This document shows positions 11,321-39,292 of a stretch of DNA of 64,000 nucleotides, piece after piece. This stretch comes from Planctomycetota bacterium (GTDB lineage Bacteria > Planctomycetota > UBA1135 > UBA2386), in assembly GCA_965223545.1 (NCBI GenBank), contig OZ245006.1:1248001-1312000 (forward strand), in the 5' to 3' direction. The position numbers and the translations under genes are program-made. The notes beneath the pieces are model-generated. The model saw only the letters and a list, made by a program, of their open reading frames with translations, was not told the origin of the DNA and did no database searches. The first letter of the stretch is position 1, and each line of letters starts with the position of its first letter.

Positions 11321-14300
11321 GCGACGGGGCGACGACTGGCTGGCGCCGCGTCGAGACGCTGTTCGCCGACGCCGTCGCGCTGCCCGTCGAGGCCCGGCCG
11401 GCCTTTCTCGATCGCGCGTGCGCGGGCGATGCGCGCCTTCGCAGCGAGGTCGAAGCCCTGCTGGCGCACGACCGCGGCGGTCCGCTCGACCGCGCGCCGC
11501 TGCGCATCGACATCGTCGATCCCGATCCGCTGCTGCGGGAGGACGCGATGATCGGGCGGTTCCGCCTGACCCGCCCGCTGGCCGAGGGCGGCATGGGCGC
11601 GGTCTGGCTGGCGGAGAGAGCCGACGGCGCGTTTCGGCAAGAGGTCGCGGTCAAGGTGTTGAAGCGCGGTCTCGATACGGCAACCGTTCTGCGCCGCTTC
11701 CACGAGGAGCGCCAGCTGCTGGCCGGTCTCGTCCACCGCAACATCGCGCGCCTCCTCGACGGTGGAGCGACCAGTGACGGACGCCCTTACCTGGTCTTGG
11801 AGCACGTCGACGGCATTCCGATCGACGTCTTCTGCCGCGAGCTGTCGGTCGAAGCCACCCTCCGCCTGTTCGCCAAGGTGTGCGACGCAGTGGGCCACGC
11901 CCACACGAATCTCGTGGTCCACCGAGACCTGAAGCCCTCCAACGTCCTGGTCACCGCGGCCGGCGAGCCCAAGCTGCTGGACTTCGGCATCGCCAAGCTT
12001 CTCGCCGAGAACCACACCGACATCACGCAGTACCAGCAGCACCCGATGACTCCACAGTACGCCAGCCCCGAGCAGATCCGCGGCGGTCAGGTCAGCACTG
12101 CCAGCGACGTCTATGCACTCGGCTTGTTGCTCTACGAACTACTCTCCGGGCAACGCGCGTACGAGCTCGCCGCATGTGACACCGAAGAACGCCGACGCGT
12201 GGTGCTGGAAGTCGTACCACCGGCGGTGAGTCAGGTGGTGCCAAGACCGCGGGCGCAGCTCCTGCGCGGCGACCTCGACGCCATCGTATCCACCGCGCTG
12301 CGCAAAGCGCCCGGGGAACGCTATGCCTCGGCGCGCGAGCTGGGCGCCGACATCTCCCGTTTCCTAGCCGGCCACCCGGTCATCGCCCGCGGCGACACGT
12401 GGGGCTATCGCACGGCCAAGTTCATTCGCCGCCATCGCGTCGCCATCGCCGCCTCCAGTGCGGCCCTCTTGGGGCTGTGCACGACCCTCGTCATGGCTGT
12501 CTGGATGTGGCAACGCGCCGAGACGCACGCCCGCGAATCGAGCTGGCGCGGCTACGCCGCCGCCCTCAATGCCGCCGACGCGGCGCTCGGCCTGCGCCGT
12601 GCCCCGGAGGAGGCGCGCTCGCTGCTAGCCGAGGTCGCGCCGGGCGACCGCGGCTGGGAGTGGCGCCACCTGTGGCAGCGCGCCAACCGCAGCCTGTGGT
12701 CGTCCGCCCTGCCGGGCCGGGGCTTCGCCACCGCGTTTCACCCCACCGATGCGATCCTCGCCGTCGGCGGCGGTTTGTCCAACAGTGCCGTCCTCGAGCT
12801 ACGCGATGGCGGCGACGGCGCGCTGGTCCGGGCCTTCGAGGGCCACGGCGCGCGCGTGCGCGACCTCGAGTTTTCGCCGGATGGCCGTTGGTTGGCGTCC
12901 GCCGCGGAAGACGGCACGGTGCGCGTGTGGGACGTCGGCAGCGGCGTCGAGTTGCGCCGGATCGAGATCGAGAGCCCGCTGGCGCTGGGCTTCGGCGGCG
13001 CGGGCCGGCACCTCGCCGCCGCCGGCGGCAGCGGGGACGCGCCGGTGCTGATGCTGCTGGATCTGGAGCAGGCCGTGCCCCCGCGACAAATCGCGATCGC
13101 CAGCCGGGCGTGGGCTCTGGACGTCGGCGATGCCGGGCAGCGCGTGGCGATCGGCTGTGACGACGGCTGTGTGCGCTTGGCCGACTTCTCCCGAGCGGAT
13201 CCGACCGTGTCCTGCACCGCGGCCGTCGATGGCACCCCAGTGCGCGCCGTCGCCTTCGCGCCGGCGATGGCGCGCCTGTTCGCAACGACCAGCGACGGCC
13301 GCTGCGCCGAGTTCGACCCAGCGACCCTGGCGCAGATCGACGCCTGGACCGGTCCGGCGCAGGCGTGGGGACTCGCCATCGAGCCGCGGCTCGGACTCAT
13401 CGCCTGGAGCTCGCAGGTCACGCAGGGAGGCATCAACGCGGTGTTGCTCACCGGTCTGCGCCGCGGCACCATCCGCGGCAGCTTCGTCGGCCACCGGTAT
13501 CCGGGCGGCGTCTGGGGCCTGGCGCTGTCGCCCGACGGAGAGCGTCTCGCCAGCACGTCGTGGGACCGCGAACTCTGCGTGTGGGACATCGAGGGCACGC
13601 CGGCCGCGTCGACCATCGACCCCGACCTCCCGCCGGCTCGGTGCGTCGCGGCCGGCGGTGACCAGTGGGTCGCAGGGCTCGAGTCGGGAGAGATCGTGGT
13701 CTGGGACGCGGTCACCACCGCCCGGCGGGTACGGCGCGGCCTACACGCTCAATCCGTCGCCGCGGTGTGTGTCACGGCGAACGACGGGATCGTCAGCGCC
13801 AGCGGCAACCGAGTCTGCTTCGGCGTCGAGCGTCCGCGGTGGCACACTCTTGACGCGCCGGTCACGGCTCTGGGCACCGCCAGCGCGCTGGACGGTGTTC
13901 TGGTGGGAATGACCAACGGCACACTGGTGCAGCTGACCGCGGCGGGCGCCGGCCGCGTGCTGCAGAAGCAGCCCGACACGAGCATCACCGCCATCGCGAG
14001 CTCGCCGAGCGTAGAACACGCCCTCATCGCCCGCACCGCGGGACCGAACGGCGGCACGCTCGACCGACTGGCGCTGCCGGCCGCGGGCCTGGAATGGCGC
14101 GTCGGTCTCGAGGACGAGCCTGTCGACGTCGCGCTGTTGACCGGTGCGCCGCCGCGCGTCGCGGTCGCGCTGCGCGGCGACCGGCTGCACTTCTTCGCCA
14201 CCGGCGATGGCGCGTGCATTCGCCGCGTGCCCGACACTCCGGGAAGCTGGCGCCTCAACGCCTTGGCAGTCCTGCCGGCAGGACGCCTGGCGAGCGCGGG

Positions 14301-33205: not shown

Positions 33206-33496
33206 TCAGCGATCGACGTCGAGGACCGCGATCAGGTCCATCATCTGCTCGATCTGCGCCTGGCTGCCCCTGACCAACACGCTGTTGGTCGCGGCGTCCG
33301 CGGCCACGCGCGCGCCAGGCTTCGACTCGATGAGGCGGTTCACCGTGCTGGCCACCGCATCCGCTGCGGCGTACTCGAGCCGGATGACACGCGCCTGCTC
33401 CGTGGTATCGGGCGCGGGAGACTGGCGCAGCTCGCCGCCGGTGCTGCACGCAGCGGCAGCGAACGCTGCGACAAGGACGAGGCGTGGAGTTCGCAT
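33206..33496 (-). CDS. Small lipoprotein with a single Secretin_N (NolW-like) domain
   Basis: Lipobox FAAAAC; RVIRLEYAAADAVA.TV..RVAADAATNSVLVRG...IEQM.DLI..LD. Confidence 0.75.
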   Translation of the reverse strand: MRTPRLVLVAAFAAAACSTGGELRQSPAPDTTEQARVIRLEYAAADAVASTVNRLIESKPGARVAADAATNSVLVRGSQAQIEQMMDLIAVLDVDR

Positions 33497-33576
33497 ACCA
33501 TAGAGACGTCCCGGCAACCCGCTCCTTGCGCCGGCCCGGCGAAAGAACCCAATCCTCCGGCGGCCGCCGGCAGTTT

Positions 33577-33611
33577 TGCGGATTTTGTCGACCATCGCGC
33601 GCGGTGAAGAC
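33577..33611 (+). promoter_or_regulatory. Candidate ECF promoter of the FG-GAP gene
   Basis: TGCGGATTTTGTCGAC-N16-GAC; 15 of 16 nt identical to the motif at the 5' end of the ECF sigma gene (39258-39292, minus strand). Confidence 0.55.
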
Positions 33612-33661
33612 CCCTCCCGACCGACACCCGCCGCATATCCGCGGCTTCTAAGGAGACACCC

Positions 33662-35494
33662 TTGCATTCATCCGTCCTTCACACCGGACTCGTTCTCGCC
33701 GTGCTCTCGTCCAGCGCGACGGCCCAGTACCTCGCCACCCCTCAGCACATCGCGCGAGACCTCCCCCTGGACAAAGCCGGCCCCGCCGCCAGCCCGCAGG
33801 CCGGCGACTTCAACGGCGACGTGATCCCGGACCTCGCCTACGTCGACGAGGGGACCGGCACGTTCGTCGTCGTCTGGAGCACCACGGGCATCGCGCAGTA
33901 CACCAACTCGGCCGACTCCGGCATCCTCGGCGTCTCGGCGATCGCGGCCCTCGACGTCGCCACGGGCGCCGACGGGCTGATCGCGGTCGGTCCCGGCGGC
34001 GCGCGGTTGGTGGCCTACGACGAAACCTCGCAGAGCTTTGTCACCAACAGCATCCCGAGCTGGAGCGGAGTCCGGCAGGTCGTCGCCGAGGAACACTCGG
34101 GAGGCCATTTCATCGCCGGCCTCAACGACGCAGGCGACGAGGTCCGCGCCGGCGTTTGGTCACCGGCGACGGGGTTCACGGCACTTGCCACGATCGCCAC
34201 GTCCGGTGCCCTCGACGTCGCCATCGCCGACTGGGAAGACTTCGACAGCGCGGTCGACCCCGAGATCATCGTCCGCACCCAGAACGAGTTGCTCGTCCAC
34301 GATCCGATCACCGGCGTGCTGCGCCACACCGAGTCGAAGCCGAGCACGGTCGCCAACGGCAGCGTGACGAGAGTCGAAGCCGGAGGCGCCGACCAGATCG
34401 CGTGGGTGCGCTGGAACGCCACCAAGTGGCGGCTCCACCTGTTCGCGGACGGCAACCAACTGCAGGCCTTCAACCTCGACCTACAGCCGCTGACCTTGCC
34501 GGCGTCGAACCTGGTCAACCTGTCGGCGGGCGACTACGACGGCGACGGCTTCGAAGACCTCTTGTTCTACGAAACGACGACGCAGTACCTGGTCGTCTTC
34601 CACCACCAAGCCAGCCCTCCCGGCTACATGCTCGAGGAGTACTATCTGGTCGACGACGGCACCCCCGATCCGGTCACCGATACCGCGCACGCCCTGTTCG
34701 CCGACATCAACAACGACTGGAACGAAGAGAACGCCGGTCAGCTGCTACTGCAGCTCGCCGATCTGATCGTTGTTCAGGAGTCGCAGGGGGGCGCAACGGG
34801 CGGAATCTCAATGCACGTCGACCTGGACAACACGTTCAAGGACGCGCACTTACTCGACCAGCCCACGGAACCCCCACCGCCTCCGTTCTTGATTCCGGTC
34901 GAGGACTATCCGCCGGAGTACACGCTGGGTTCGACCCAGTACGTCGGCACGAACTCGAACCTCGAGATCGGCCTCGAAGCGCCGCATTGGGCGACGCACA
35001 TCCAGGTGACCGCGTGGCGCTACGATTCGCCATGCTGCGAGAGCGGTGGCTCCACCTGCCCCGTCGTCGACATGGAGCTGGAGTGCAACAAGCTGACCGT
35101 GGTGGACCCCAGCATGGTGACGACCACGGTGGCGACCACGGTTACCCAACAGAACGCCAATGCGGCCGGGCAGTCCTGGTCCACGGACGAGCTGCACTAT
35201 CTGCAGGTCCGGTTTCTCGAGCTCGACGCGGCACTGGAGATCGTGCGCAGCACCGAGGTCTATCTGTACGCGGTGATCGCCGACGAGACGCTGAGCTCGT
35301 CTGCCAACTACTGGAGCGGCCTCGACTGCATCGCGCCGCCCGGGGCAGAGGAGGACAGCGTCGGTCAGGAGGGCGTGACCACTGGTGGAAGGATCATCGG
35401 CGCCATCAAGCTGCGCGACATCAAGGGCAAAGAAACCTTCCCGAACACACCGCAGCCGGTCCCCAACCAGGTCGGCACCTGCGTTTCGTCCTGA
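33662..35494 (+). CDS. Secreted FG-GAP/VCBS repeat protein with a Cys-containing C-terminal region
   Basis: AAGGAG RBS and TTG start; signal peptide (..SSSATA-Q); AGDFNGDVIPDL, IADWED, AGDYDGDGFEDLL, FADINND. Confidence 0.8.
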   Translation: MHSSVLHTGLVLAVLSSSATAQYLATPQHIARDLPLDKAGPAASPQAGDFNGDVIPDLAYVDEGTGTFVVVWSTTGIAQYTNSADSGILGVSAIAALDVATGADGLIAVGPGGARLVAYDETSQSFVTNSIPSWSGVRQVVAEEHSGGHFIAGLNDAGDEVRAGVWSPATGFTALATIATSGALDVAIADWEDFDSAVDPEIIVRTQNELLVHDPITGVLRHTESKPSTVANGSVTRVEAGGADQIAWVRWNATKWRLHLFADGNQLQAFNLDLQPLTLPASNLVNLSAGDYDGDGFEDLLFYETTTQYLVVFHHQASPPGYMLEEYYLVDDGTPDPVTDTAHALFADINNDWNEENAGQLLLQLADLIVVQESQGGATGGISMHVDLDNTFKDAHLLDQPTEPPPPPFLIPVEDYPPEYTLGSTQYVGTNSNLEIGLEAPHWATHIQVTAWRYDSPCCESGGSTCPVVDMELECNKLTVVDPSMVTTTVATTVTQQNANAAGQSWSTDELHYLQVRFLELDAALEIVRSTEVYLYAVIADETLSSSANYWSGLDCIAPPGAEEDSVGQEGVTTGGRIIGAIKLRDIKGKETFPNTPQPVPNQVGTCVSS

Positions 35495-35503
35495 CCGGAC
35501 CGC

Positions 35504-37960
35504 TCACGGCAGGGGTCGATCGCCGCGCCCGTAGACGATCGTCTGCGCGCGCACGAAGCGCGTGGTCCAACCGGCGCCGGCGAGGTCCCGCCGCGCCCGC
35601 TGCACGGCCTCCGCCGGACTGAGCCGCTGCTGCAGTCCACGGTGGACGCGCTCGGCGAACTCGACCTCCTCGCCGAGCTCGACCTCGGCGACCGAGACGA
35701 CGACCGTGTGCGCGCCGGCGCGGAACAGGGCGCCGCCCAGCGTCGTGGCCAACGGACTGTCGCCCGGCCGGCGGTAACCGCTCCCAGCCTTGCAGGAGGA
35801 CAGCAAACACAAGCCAGGGACCTGCATGCCGGCGATGGTCTCGAAGTCGACCACCGCATCGGCCAGCGCCAGGGCGGCGCCCAGCTCGCGCCCGTCGTGG
35901 ACATGATGCGCAACGAGATGGAACACACTGGCACTCGTGCCGGACAGCGAGGCGAGCGCCGCGGCCGTCGCCTCGGAATCGAACAGCAGCTGCGCCTCGG
36001 AACCGACCGCCGCGCTGAAGCGGGCACGCAACCTCGCCGGAAAGGGGATCGGCTCCAGCCCCGCGCGGGCCGCGCCTTCGGCGTGCGTATCCGTGCACGC
36101 CACGACGACCGCCGAGTACGCGGGCTCGAGCTCACCGCTGCCCTCCAAGGCCAACCGCAACGGCAGCGAGCCGATCTCGACGATCGGCAGCCGCTCGCCG
36201 AGCAGGGCGTCGCCCTCGCCATCGGCCGCCGGCACGACCAGGGTTGAGAACGGCACTCCCAGCAAGTCGCCGGCGACCACGGTCGCCCCGCTCCAGGACA
36301 GCACGCGCGCCGCCAGGCCAGCGGACGACGGCAGAATCTCGGCCGACAGGGCCCGAGCGCTCTCGACGAGCGCGTTCTCGTGAACAGGGTCGGCGCTCAC
36401 GCGCGGGTCTCTCGCCAAACGCCGGTCCAGCTTCACCGCGAGGCTGCGCACGTCGGCTCCGCGGGGCAGCCGCACGCACTCGGTGCCGGCCTCGTCGAGC
36501 ACGAACAGGTAGGATCCATACGGGCCCGGAACAAACACCAAGACCCCCGCCCCATCGCGGACCAACACTCGGCGCACGTCCGCGACCGAGCACTGCGGCG
36601 CGCCGCGGGCCAACGCGAGGCTGTTGCAGCGCTGGACCTCCAACACCGCTTGCAGAGCGCGTTCGACTCCCTGGTCCGCATCCAACGCAAGGGCCAACTC
36701 GATGCGCTCGGAGACGATGTAGCGCCGGTCATCGAACCGCAAGAAGCCCAACCCCCCAGGCCGCTCACCCTGCGCGGCCCAGCTGCGGAGCATCTCCGAC
36801 AGCGTCGCGGCCACGCGATCGCGATGATCACGCAGCTCGGCATCAGATTCGCCCTGAAGCCGCGCCAGCCGGCTGCGCAGCGCTGGCCAGTGCGGGCTCT
36901 CGGCTCCCTGACCGGCCGCGAGCGCGCGCCGATACTCTTCGCTCTGCCGCCGGGACTCTTCGAGGTCGCCACACTCGAGCGCCAGCTTCATGAGCTTCAG
37001 GTGCCCTTGAATGCGGATCTCCGGGATCAAGTGCGAGTTTTCGAGCCGTTGGCGAAACTCGGCCGCGGCAGCCGCGATCGCCGCGACCCGCTCTGTTGGA
37101 TCTGCGAGTTGGACCGCTTGTAGGTAGCGCGCAAGCGCGAGGTGCATGCGCAGGTAGGCCCGGTGCGCGGGAGACCACTCGACAACCTGGAGCGCTTCTT
37201 CCACTCGGTAGATGACGGCGCGCGCGTGACCGCGCCCCAACTCGAACTCCGCCAATCGCAGCGTGGCGTTCGCCAGCACGCTGGCATCGCCGCTCCGCTG
37301 GGCCAGCTTCCATTCATCGTCGAGGTGCAGTGCGGCCTGATCCGGCACCCCGGTGCGCACGTAGGTCTCCGCGATGATGCCGTGCAGCGATGCCTGGGCG
37401 GCGAGGTCCTCCTTCGTTTTGGCGATCTCGAGCAGCCGCTCCGCCTGCCTTCTCGCCCAGCGGTACTCGCCACGGCGAATGCCGATCTGCGCCAGGATCT
37501 CGCCGCGCAAGAACTCGCCCTGGCGCTCGCCGGGGTTCACCGCCTCGAAGTCGGTCAGCACGCGCGCGGCCAGGTCCAGGAACGCCAAGCGGACCGCAGC
37601 CACCGCCACCGCCAACGTGGCATCGGCCCTGGCTTTGGGGTATGGCCCCGGACCGACGAAGACCGCTCCCGCGCGTGACAGCAGGGCGATGTACTCCTCC
37701 TCGCGCCCCGCGGCACTCTCTCCCGCGATCGCCTCGACGGCGTTCGTGAGGCCGTTGAGCGCTCGACCGGCAGTCGGCGCCGCCTCGGCGGCAATGACGG
37801 CGCGGCGCAGTGACTCCAACCGGTCGACAGCTGCAGTCGGGGTCGGAGCTGGAGTTGGGTCCTGGATCGCGTCCGCGCGCTCGTCACCCGCCTCGCGGCT
37901 CGCAAGCCAGAGCCCAGCGCCAGCGGCCGCCAGCACCAGCAGCAAACGGCTGCCGATCAC
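35504..37960 (-). CDS. CHAT-domain (caspase-like) protein with an N-terminal signal/anchor and TPR-like helices
   Basis: GTG start overlaps the upstream stop; RLLLVLAAAGAGLWL; helical middle; LLGVPFSTL, EAT, VFHLVAHH, LCLLSSCKAG, LFRAGAHTVVVS..EV, SPAEAVQRAR, IVYG. Confidence 0.85.
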   Translation of the reverse strand: MIGSRLLLVLAAAGAGLWLASREAGDERADAIQDPTPAPTPTAAVDRLESLRRAVIAAEAAPTAGRALNGLTNAVEAIAGESAAGREEEYIALLSRAGAVFVGPGPYPKARADATLAVAVAAVRLAFLDLAARVLTDFEAVNPGERQGEFLRGEILAQIGIRRGEYRWARRQAERLLEIAKTKEDLAAQASLHGIIAETYVRTGVPDQAALHLDDEWKLAQRSGDASVLANATLRLAEFELGRGHARAVIYRVEEALQVVEWSPAHRAYLRMHLALARYLQAVQLADPTERVAAIAAAAAEFRQRLENSHLIPEIRIQGHLKLMKLALECGDLEESRRQSEEYRRALAAGQGAESPHWPALRSRLARLQGESDAELRDHRDRVAATLSEMLRSWAAQGERPGGLGFLRFDDRRYIVSERIELALALDADQGVERALQAVLEVQRCNSLALARGAPQCSVADVRRVLVRDGAGVLVFVPGPYGSYLFVLDEAGTECVRLPRGADVRSLAVKLDRRLARDPRVSADPVHENALVESARALSAEILPSSAGLAARVLSWSGATVVAGDLLGVPFSTLVVPAADGEGDALLGERLPIVEIGSLPLRLALEGSGELEPAYSAVVVACTDTHAEGAARAGLEPIPFPARLRARFSAAVGSEAQLLFDSEATAAALASLSGTSASVFHLVAHHVHDGRELGAALALADAVVDFETIAGMQVPGLCLLSSCKAGSGYRRPGDSPLATTLGGALFRAGAHTVVVSVAEVELGEEVEFAERVHRGLQQRLSPAEAVQRARRDLAGAGWTTRFVRAQTIVYGRGDRPLP

Positions 37961-38667
37961 TCCCGCCGCCGCGCCCGCGCGATTCCGAGAATCTGCGGAG
38001 CGCCGGTCGCGTCCGGCTTGACGACGGCCCATACCAAATCGACCGGCAGACTCTCCACCAACTCGCTGCTGTCCCATGTGCGCGCGTGCCCCACGGTCTC
38101 GATGTGAACCGGCGTGAGCTCGGACAGCGCGACTGGCTCGACCGGCTCCCCGCCGAGATCCTCCCCATCATAGAGATACAGCTCGATCGTGTCGGTGACC
38201 GCCAGGCCATCGACGCGCCACTCGAAGACTGGAGCGGCGGCGTACGAGCCGTGCGGACGCATCGAGTCCGTGACGTCAGCCGACACTCCCCCCAAGTAGA
38301 TCCGCGGATCCGCGGGGGCAGCAGCGGACGGCCACGCCCACCACACCAGCGCCGCGACGACCACTGCCGCAGCTCCCACCTTGGCCAACGCCGCTCCACT
38401 CCAGCGCAAACGCGCGGCGCGCGCGCGCGCGCGCGCCGCCGCTGCCTCGAGGTCGAACCCGCGCGCCGCGAGCGCGCGCTCGACCGACCGGTGCTCGCCT
38501 TCCGCGACGCGGTCCAGCCGACCCTGCATTGTCCGCAACCGCTCCAGCCGCGCACCGAACTCCGGCGCACTGCGCAGCGCGTCGCGCACGCTGGGGTCGT
38601 CCTCGCTGAGATCACCCGCCAGAATCGCTGCCAGCATCGTCTCCAACTCCTCGGATCGCTCGCTCAT
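37957..38667 (-). CDS. Putative single-pass membrane anti-sigma factor
   Basis: ATGA-coupled to the sigma gene; helical cytoplasmic N-terminus, TM segment ([16 protein letters not shown]), then a small extracytoplasmic beta domain (IYLGG..RPHG..VFEW..WAV). Confidence 0.65.
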
Positions 38668-39284
38668 GCGCACTCGCCTCCCGCCTGCGACTCGCGCTCC
38701 TCCAACAGGGACTCCAAGCGCGCGATGCCCTTGTAGTAGCGCGCCTTCAGGGTGCTCACCGGGACCTCCAACCGTGCGCCCATCTCCTCGAAGGTCAAGC
38801 CCTCGAAGTGCTTCAGCACCACCGCTTCGGCCTCGACCCCGCCGACCTTGGCGAGGGCCTGCATGACCCGGTCGCGCTCCGCGATCCCATCGTCCCGAGC
38901 GCTGGACACCTCGCTCCCCTCGCGCACCTCGAGCTGGCGCGGCGCACGCCGCGCGCGGCGCACGCCGTTCATCAGCTCCAGTCGACAGATGCGGTAGATC
39001 CAGCTGTCGGCCGGCGCGCGCCCCTCGTACTCGGAGAGCTTCTGCAAGATGATCACCACCGTGTCCTGAGCCAAGTCGGCGAGATCGTGCTCGGAGAGCG
39101 GCCGGCCCAGCCGGGCGTTCTGCGCCCCGAGCATCCTCGGCACACGTTTCAGCAGGTCCGCGAAGTCCCGGATGGCATCTTCCTTTCCGTCGAGCACCCC
39201 GCGGATCGTGGCCAGATCGCTGGCGCACCGCGAATCGGCGGGGACGGGGATGCAGGCGTCGGAGGGTTGCGGGCGAGTCGACAA
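38664..39284 (-). CDS. ECF RNA polymerase sigma factor
   Basis: [26 protein letters not shown] (region 2); [33 protein letters not shown] (region 4). Start uncertain: TTG 39284, ATG 39356 or GTG 39197. Confidence 0.88.
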
Positions 39285-39292
39285 AAACCGCA
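39258..39292 (-). promoter_or_regulatory. Candidate autoregulatory ECF promoter
   Basis: Minus strand reads TGCGGTTTTTGTCGAC-N16-GAC, the same as the motif at 33577-33611. Confidence 0.5.

Follow-up and report, generated by a model that had tools for sequence, protein, structure and literature searches.

The window analyzed here, a stretch of 64,000 nucleotides (nt) from a Planctomycetota bacterium (assembly GCA_965223545.1, contig OZ245006.1, positions 1,248,001 to 1,312,000), carries four genes that make up a well-conserved and apparently undescribed regulatory module, a split variant of the DdvS/DdvA-like regulator that acts like it without being a member of it. Three overlapping minus-strand genes encode a sigma factor of the extracytoplasmic function (ECF) class, a likely anti-sigma factor with one membrane helix, and a predicted exported protease in which tetratricopeptide repeat (TPR)-like helices precede a CHAT domain, and they converge on the gene of a predicted secreted FG-GAP-like protein. 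Chance does not explain the arrangement, since two paralogous loci and dozens of further loci at 19-32% identity show the genes in the same order. We think it reasonably likely that a signal activates the exported protease, upon which the anti-sigma linker is cut, RseP makes a second cut in the membrane helix, and the sigma factor, once free, drives both promoters of the module. The features, with positions counted from the first letter of the window, are as follows.

33578..33614, plus strand: predicted promoter of ECF type ahead of the FG-GAP gene (T-tract and -35 element TTTTGTCGAC at 33583-33592, 16-nt spacer, -10 element GACCCC at 33609-33614)
33662..35494, plus strand: predicted secreted FG-GAP-like protein of 610 amino acids (aa), with a signal peptide ending TA-Q, degenerate FG-GAP repeats and a Gly/Pro-rich C-terminal tail
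35504..38077, minus strand: predicted exported TPR-CHAT protease, 857 aa long if read from ATG 38077 and 818 aa if read from GTG 37960
35792..35794, minus strand: catalytic Cys C723 of the CHAT protease (818-aa numbering), invariant, LSSC motif
35906..35908, minus strand: catalytic His H685 of the CHAT protease (818-aa numbering), invariant, VFHLVAHH motif
37957..38667, minus strand: likely anti-sigma of 236 aa, with a three-helix N-terminal domain, a membrane helix at residues ~90-112, a flexible linker and an FN3-like outer domain
38290..38295, minus strand: Leu125-Gly126 in the juxtamembrane linker of the anti-sigma, candidate cleavage site suggested by conservation and low model confidence nearby
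38664..39251, minus strand: ECF sigma factor, ~195 aa if starting at ATC 39251; start uncertain
39255..39291, minus strand: predicted sigma operon promoter, autoregulatory (-35 element at 39286-39277, 16-nt spacer, -10 element GACGCC at 39260-39255)

Conservation of the four-gene module

A first, sequence-only reading of the window had proposed that the three minus-strand genes are translationally coupled and that they converge on the FG-GAP gene. Both statements hold: the genes overlap by ATGA and GTGA, and the stop codons of the CHAT and FG-GAP genes are 9 nt apart. For a survey of the neighbourhood in relatives, loci were selected with two different profiles. The protease profile matched 49 of the 61 genomes searched, a count that includes unrelated CHAT proteins, and 60 of the 69 best non-self matches, reaching down to E 3.8e-27 and coming from 29 genomes, were retained as the CHAT-selected set (nine close to contig ends were left out). 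Within this set the sigma gene was present in 56, the anti-sigma gene in 55 and the convergent FG-GAP gene in 54 of the 60 loci, and 50 loci from 26 of the 29 genomes contained all four genes. As an independent test the anti-sigma profile was searched against 301 genomes of the phylum, where strong matches (E <= 5.5e-19) occurred in 18 genomes, and many weak matches spanned the N-terminal 130 positions alone. The resulting anti-sigma-selected set comprised 35 strong genes new to the analysis, in 33 regions of 14 genomes, together with 7 weak-match control loci. All 33 regions contained the sigma gene, 28 of the 32 that could be evaluated (one lay at a contig edge) had a CHAT gene downstream, and the convergent FG-GAP gene was found in 26 of these 28; none of the 7 control loci contained a CHAT gene. 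The triplet is therefore conserved elsewhere, and although the relatives are non-independent kin, identities of 19-32% among the module members make mere linkage unlikely.

The source genome itself contains the module three times, in the window and in the loci L005 and L007, with mutual identities of 15-35%. The last of its four CHAT loci (L006:7841-10900) encodes a long TPR-CHAT protein with a signal-like N-terminus, outside any such module and with no adjoining sigma gene. Among six strong database matches of the window sigma factor, all four with a named source came from Planctomycetota.

Several loci deviate from the standard layout or multiply it. Two full modules stand side by side in tandem in L109 (G076:C527) and in L135 (G239:C7), and the genomes G009 and G224 have seven or more related loci each. 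In the paralogous module L005 a gene of lower GC content at third codon positions lies between the CHAT and FG-GAP genes (11380-12960); by eye its product resembles a TAXI-family solute-binding protein. In L111 (7088-8020) the sigma/anti-sigma pair has no CHAT partner; behind it comes a secreted Cys-rich protein of ~280 aa, and the FG-GAP gene lies upstream in divergent orientation. In the CHAT-less locus L113 (8046-9254) a start codon and a signal-peptide-like stretch overlap the end of the anti-sigma gene and then run into a stop, as would be expected if the protease had been lost recently, which we regard as likely. Finally, L040 (3999-4905) has the N-terminus of the anti-sigma in the CHAT frame and the membrane part in another frame, likely a frameshift or an assembly error.

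The three proteins of the sigma operon

The ECF identity of the sigma factor was confirmed, as the protein scored above cut-off with PF04542, PF08281 and TIGR02937 and consists of the sigma2 and sigma4 regions only, in about 200 aa.

The second protein had been described as a single-pass membrane protein and possible anti-sigma. One membrane helix is predicted here and in 57 of 58 anti-sigmas of the family, and in all 58 the N-terminal side of the helix is the more basic one, which by charge places the N-terminus inside. In the structural model the helices 3-16, 25-33 and 35-68 form the N-terminal domain, residues 114-123 are a linker of low confidence, and the outer domain of ~100 aa is a beta-sandwich whose structural matches are largely FN3-like. 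When the family profile was compared with PDB it matched 3HUG_B (E 0.0011), the RslA anti-sigma, and RsiW (5WUQ, E 0.036). The NCBIfam anti-sigma model NF052375 matched 25 of 57 members, below the cut-off of the model, and no common Pfam family was found for the set. Collectively, these data make the protein a likely anti-sigma that is expected to bind the sigma factor through its three-helix domain. In the linker, 7-25 residues outside the membrane helix, a Leu is present in 52 of 58 anti-sigmas and is followed by a small residue, giving Leu-Gly in 34 of 58.

The 818-aa form of the third protein matches CHAT (PF12770) with E 8e-20, and the His-Cys dyad seen in the first reading (H685 and C723) is kept in all complete proteases of the two locus sets, 63/63 and 29/29 or 92 in all. 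The TPR-like helices of the N-terminal half were likewise borne out, by profile matches and by the helical repeats of an AlphaFold model (predicted local distance difference test score, pLDDT, 91) in which a TPR superhelix is joined to a caspase-like domain. The top structural matches of the model were Csx29 and DdvA, with DdvA giving the highest template modelling score (0.50), and DdvA was also the top CHAT sequence match in PDB for the family profile; a phmmer search of PDB with the single window protease gave no match. From the Pfam match, the dyad and the modelled fold we regard the protein as a CHAT protease whose proteolytic activity is predicted.

Export of the protease was judged by hydropathy and simple patterns. 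A hydrophobic stretch resembling a signal peptide or a signal anchor lies just after 37960 in the window protease, and 52 of 58 proteases have a hydrophobic N-terminus after the start, compared with 14% of control windows. An Ala-Gln-type cleavage pattern occurs in 33 proteases and a lipobox-like pattern in 6. At the other end, 37 of 63 proteases finish with a membrane helix and a basic tail behind it, the window protease being without one. The N-terminal signals and the C-terminal helix with its basic tail predict a catalytic domain outside the cytoplasm, and the protease is thus predicted to be extracytoplasmic, as the first reading had supposed. Arg pairs are frequent in the overlapping protease/anti-sigma frame of this GC-rich DNA and therefore say little about a twin-arginine translocation signal. 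Between the TPR and CHAT parts, at residues ~395-413 of the 818-aa numbering, a motif W..P.R.GG.GFL....RR is conserved across the family; it could be a gate or a pseudo-substrate.

The protease start inside the anti-sigma gene

The GTGA overlap of the anti-sigma and protease genes is real, as the first reading had it, but its role as the true protease start is doubtful. The CHAT frame is open up to ATG 38077, and since the position of this ATG is conserved the overlap may not be where translation begins. The ATG arises where an A stands directly before the conserved Trp198 codon of the anti-sigma. This holds for 27 of 53 modules, compared with a background of 3-7%; in the anti-sigma-selected set the same column gave ATG in 4 of 18 only. 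When all Trp codons 60-160 nt ahead of the anti-sigma stop were counted, an A preceded 36 of 100 and 19 of 62 in the two locus sets. For Trp codons lying farther upstream the counts were 13 of 244 and 9 of 96, and control genes gave 1 of 16 and 4 of 78. Furthermore, 21 of 58 proteases have no ATG, GTG or TTG within 30 codons of the hydrophobic stretch. Taken together, the enrichment of hidden ATG codons and the proteases without a nearer start codon suggest that the protease probably starts ~120 nt inside the anti-sigma gene, which in the window would be at 38077.

Two other explanations of the overlap were rejected. A frameshift artefact that splits one gene into an anti-sigma and a CHAT gene does not fit, since both locus sets repeatedly show the split together with a new signal peptide, and the selected ATG in the overlapping frame speaks against a programmed fusion of the two proteins.

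Predicted promoters and the FG-GAP output

The pattern TTTTGTCGAC-N16-GACNCC has exactly two matches in the 8.1-Mb genome, at 33583 on the plus strand before the FG-GAP gene and at 39286 on the minus strand before the sigma gene, where a fifth-order model expects the two promoter 15-mers 0.02 and 0.03 times each. Since the pattern occurs only twice, the predicted regulon consists of the sigma factor's own operon and one gene. Upstream of the FG-GAP genes of the relatives, the motif GATTT-c-TG(A/C)AAC-N16-GAC was found with a log-likelihood of 147, against 71 for shuffled sequences, and 34 of 56 FG-GAP upstream regions, which are the training set itself, score >= 9 with the matrix. The same FG-GAP-derived matrix matches 16 of 59 sigma upstream regions, compared with 2.9% of shuffles. 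Each FG-GAP site tends to be more similar to the region ahead of its own sigma gene than to those of other loci (mean z 0.66, with 0 of 10,000 permutations as high, and best of 34 in 6 loci), a correspondence to be read with the kinship of the loci in mind, and by eye the -35 variant follows sigma region 4.2. The promoter-like site common to the FG-GAP gene and the sigma operon fits the prediction that the FG-GAP gene is under control of the sigma factor and makes its product the likely output of the module. Because the -35 element differs from module to module, while its copies in one module tend to agree, each paralogous module likely acts as a separate channel.

Inspection of 11 other loci showed a start codon (ATG, GTG or TTG) within ~13 nt behind the -10 element in 7 of them, which suggests a leaderless sigma mRNA, and we consider it likely from this spacing that the sigma operon promoter yields such a transcript.

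The FG-GAP gene has an AAGGAG site ahead of its TTG start. Its description as a secreted FG-GAP gene stands in part: a signal peptide is predicted and 7 of 10 homologues scanned pass the Pfam cut-off for FG-GAP, while the repeats of the window protein itself stay below it. At the C-terminus of the FG-GAP proteins there is a variable Gly/Pro tail that looks unstructured and contains a Gly-Gly-hydrophobic-Gly motif. This tail could conceivably be a ligand of the protease. The idea that the tail mimics the linker site of its own module was dropped, as it fitted L039, L040 and L069 by eye and not most loci, and the covariation of the tail was the weakest measured in the module. A subfamily of FG-GAP proteins (L005, L051, L055, L056, L057, L062, L070, L077 and L083) shares a fixed tail, ..PP.P..D..LLP(W/F)(N/D/E), and the anti-sigmas of these loci mostly have a distinct N-terminal domain.

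Divergent from the FG-GAP gene in the window, a small open reading frame (ORF) at 33206-33499 on the minus strand encodes a single Secretin_N domain with a lipoprotein-like N-terminus; it did not emerge as a constant part of the module.

Comparison with known systems

The first reading knew of no characterised example of such a circuit; this has to be corrected, since DdvS/DdvA of Myxococcus xanthus (PDB 8ROT) has the same parts in fused form and the same site-1 hypothesis has been published for it (PMC11506125). DdvA is described there as a fused anti-sigma with a periplasmic TPR-CHAT part, in which CHAT is put forward as the site-1 protease; it is termed the only characterised anti-sigma with TPR-CHAT and is almost confined to Myxococcota (PMC11506125). 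Cleavage of truncated DdvA by RseP was demonstrated; the site-1 role could not be, for want of a known signal and because the enzyme shares a single chain with its substrate (PMC11506125). Both systems have an autoregulated ECF sigma operon, a three-helix N-terminal anti-sigma domain, one membrane helix and a flexible linker (PMC11506125, PMC6061681), and both have an extracytoplasmic TPR-CHAT part with a His-Cys dyad (its location being predicted here), a proposed site-1 role for it and RseP at site 2.

Unlike DdvA, which is a single protein of 991 aa, the anti-sigma and the protease are encoded here by separate genes. No ORF carrying both the anti-sigma and the CHAT profile was found in either locus set, and no fused longer relative among 7999 scored candidates, which is a weak test. 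DdvA has a CHCC zinc site, whereas CxxC occurs in only 6 of 58 anti-sigmas of the present family and is absent from the window protein. Here the anti-sigma has its own FN3-like domain and the protease its own signal peptide, lipobox or membrane anchors, in contrast to DdvA. The output also differs, being a CBASS (cyclic oligonucleotide-based antiphage signalling system)-CRISPR (clustered regularly interspaced short palindromic repeats) island for DdvS/DdvA, although only for a subset of DdvA-like pairs, and one FG-GAP-like protein in the present module. The promoter is TTTT-GTCGAC/TGAAAC-N16-GAC here and GTAA-n16-CGT for DdvS (PMC6061681). In line with the earlier claim that CRISPR is not involved, no CRISPR effector gene, CBASS gene or CRISPR locus was found among 91 flanking ORFs; the PADLOC matches in 8 of these 91 are to models of a generic kind (kinase, radical-SAM, subtilase, methylase, ankyrin or WYL). 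Being unfused, mostly without a zinc site and without defence neighbours, the module is not a member of the DdvA group.

In the type III-E craspase system, Csx29 cuts Csx30, the inhibitor of CASP-sigma (PMC10028731). As here, a TPR-CHAT protein is encoded beside a sigma factor and its inhibitor, which is cut in trans in that system, and the structural match is strong. However, the craspase is cytoplasmic and switched on by Cas7-11 and target RNA, and Csx30 is soluble, whereas the present protease has export signals; neither Cas7-11, Csx30, Csx31 nor a CRISPR array was found near the module.

ECF54 of the Actinobacteria, the only ECF group for which CHAT is named in the accessible supplement of PMC7826278, also has its sigma gene near TPR-CHAT. 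It differs in having no anti-sigma, subtilase and carboxypeptidase-regulatory neighbours, a confinement to Actinobacteria and the promoter GTATCAG/CTCC (PMC7826278), whereas an anti-sigma is present here, the promoter is another one and the named relatives are Planctomycetota.

DegS, the site-1 protease of the Escherichia coli sigmaE system, is a PDZ serine protease encoded away from sigmaE. The DegS-RseA-RseP-sigmaE pathway resembles the present module in its separate site-1 protease, single-pass anti-sigma, RseP and autoregulated ECF sigma factor (PMC10028731). It is unlike it in that here each sigma factor has a dedicated, predicted cysteine protease in its own operon. In the openly accessible literature, to which our search extended, no description of a split sigma/anti-sigma/CHAT module was found.

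Proposed mechanism and alternatives

In the mechanism that we favour, the membrane protein would hold the ECF sigma factor until a ligand on the TPR superhelix activates the extracytoplasmic protease. The protease would then cut the anti-sigma linker near Leu125-Gly126, RseP would cut within the membrane (an RseP-type site-2 protease is encoded in the genome, with TIGR00054 above cut-off), and the released sigma factor would switch on both its own operon and the FG-GAP gene through the predicted common promoter type.

Several observations weigh against this mechanism. Four of the 32 evaluable anti-sigma loci have no CHAT gene within 8 kb, and the linker motif is kept in these four (as MG, IG, LD and LG), which makes the motif independent of the neighbouring protease. 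Given the sigma factor, the outer domain of the anti-sigma shows only a weak partial rank correlation with the protease (0.20-0.25), below that of the FG-GAP body with the TPR and CHAT parts (0.34-0.35). CHAT autoproteolysis was never seen for DdvA (PMC11506125). Export of the protease was judged by hydropathy and simple patterns, the promoter match is missing from 43 of 59 sigma upstream regions, and the window sigma gene has no ATG at the expected start, ATC 39251 sitting where relatives carry ATG.

In an alternative reading, sigma and anti-sigma would run the module and CHAT would be an output enzyme. It would mature or trim an envelope protein, either the FG-GAP protein (for instance at its Gly/Pro tail) or a different one, while a general site-1 protease would open the anti-sigma. 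The FG-GAP gene tracks CHAT nearly as faithfully as the anti-sigma gene does (54/60 and 26/28), the covariation with TPR and CHAT is stronger for the FG-GAP body than for the outer domain of the anti-sigma, the tail with its Gly-Gly-hydrophobic-Gly motif looks unstructured, and sigma/anti-sigma pairs without CHAT occur. We nevertheless find this unlikely, because the protease start lies within the anti-sigma gene, which ties the amount of protease to the anti-sigma and not to the FG-GAP protein, because DdvA unites both in one polypeptide (PMC11506125), and because the substrate of CHAT in type III-E systems is a sigma inhibitor (PMC10028731). Still somewhat less probable to us is that TPR-CHAT sits as a bound shield or sensor over the small FN3-like outer domain, blocks RseP, and on a signal cuts itself or is released with the anti-sigma left uncut. 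RseB shields an anti-sigma from proteolysis in a comparable way. The tight translational coupling would fit a 1:1 complex, and the bulky TPR-CHAT part of DdvA does block RseP (PMC11506125); yet a hydrophobic-small pair is conserved in the flexible juxtamembrane linker, where site-1 cuts are expected, and the CHAT-less pairs retain the same anti-sigma, so that a shield is not always required.

The last alternative concerns the window copy alone and is compatible with the favoured mechanism: the family would work as proposed, and this copy would be weak or silent through its leaderless ATC start, or the ATC would be an assembly error. It is favoured by the lack of an ATG just behind the -10 element, a place at which ATG, GTG or TTG stands in 7 of 11 other loci. 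Against it, no damage is seen in any of the four frames, in the dyad or in either promoter copy, a GTG 15 codons downstream could act as the start, and we give this possibility only a small chance.

A more speculative extension of the proposed linker cleavage, which we rate as rather improbable, is that the secreted FG-GAP protein is input as well as output. Its variable tail, alone or after the propeller has captured an outside target, would dock in the TPR groove of the CHAT protein of its own module and activate it. Cleavage of the anti-sigma would then raise the production of FG-GAP protein and close a feedback loop, so that a genome of the Planctomycetota would hold several insulated channels for recognition of surfaces or neighbours.

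Significance

An extracytoplasmic caspase-like protease as the site-1 protease of an ECF pathway has been proposed for DdvA, and the split module makes the cutting step testable, as the enzyme and its candidate substrate are separate small parts, the candidate cut site is conserved and a reporter promoter is defined to the base. Dozens of natural variants of the module could be used for swap tests. With its probable protease start concealed in a conserved Trp codon, the module also shows a selected gene overlap of an unusual kind, one overlooked by gene callers. The module extends control of ECF sigma factors by TPR-CHAT proteins from myxobacterial defence to a different phylum and a setting outside defence, where a candidate ligand is encoded by the neighbouring gene, and if the FG-GAP feedback were true it would be a bacterial receptor-caspase loop in which each channel has its own sensor, protease, sigma factor and promoter code.

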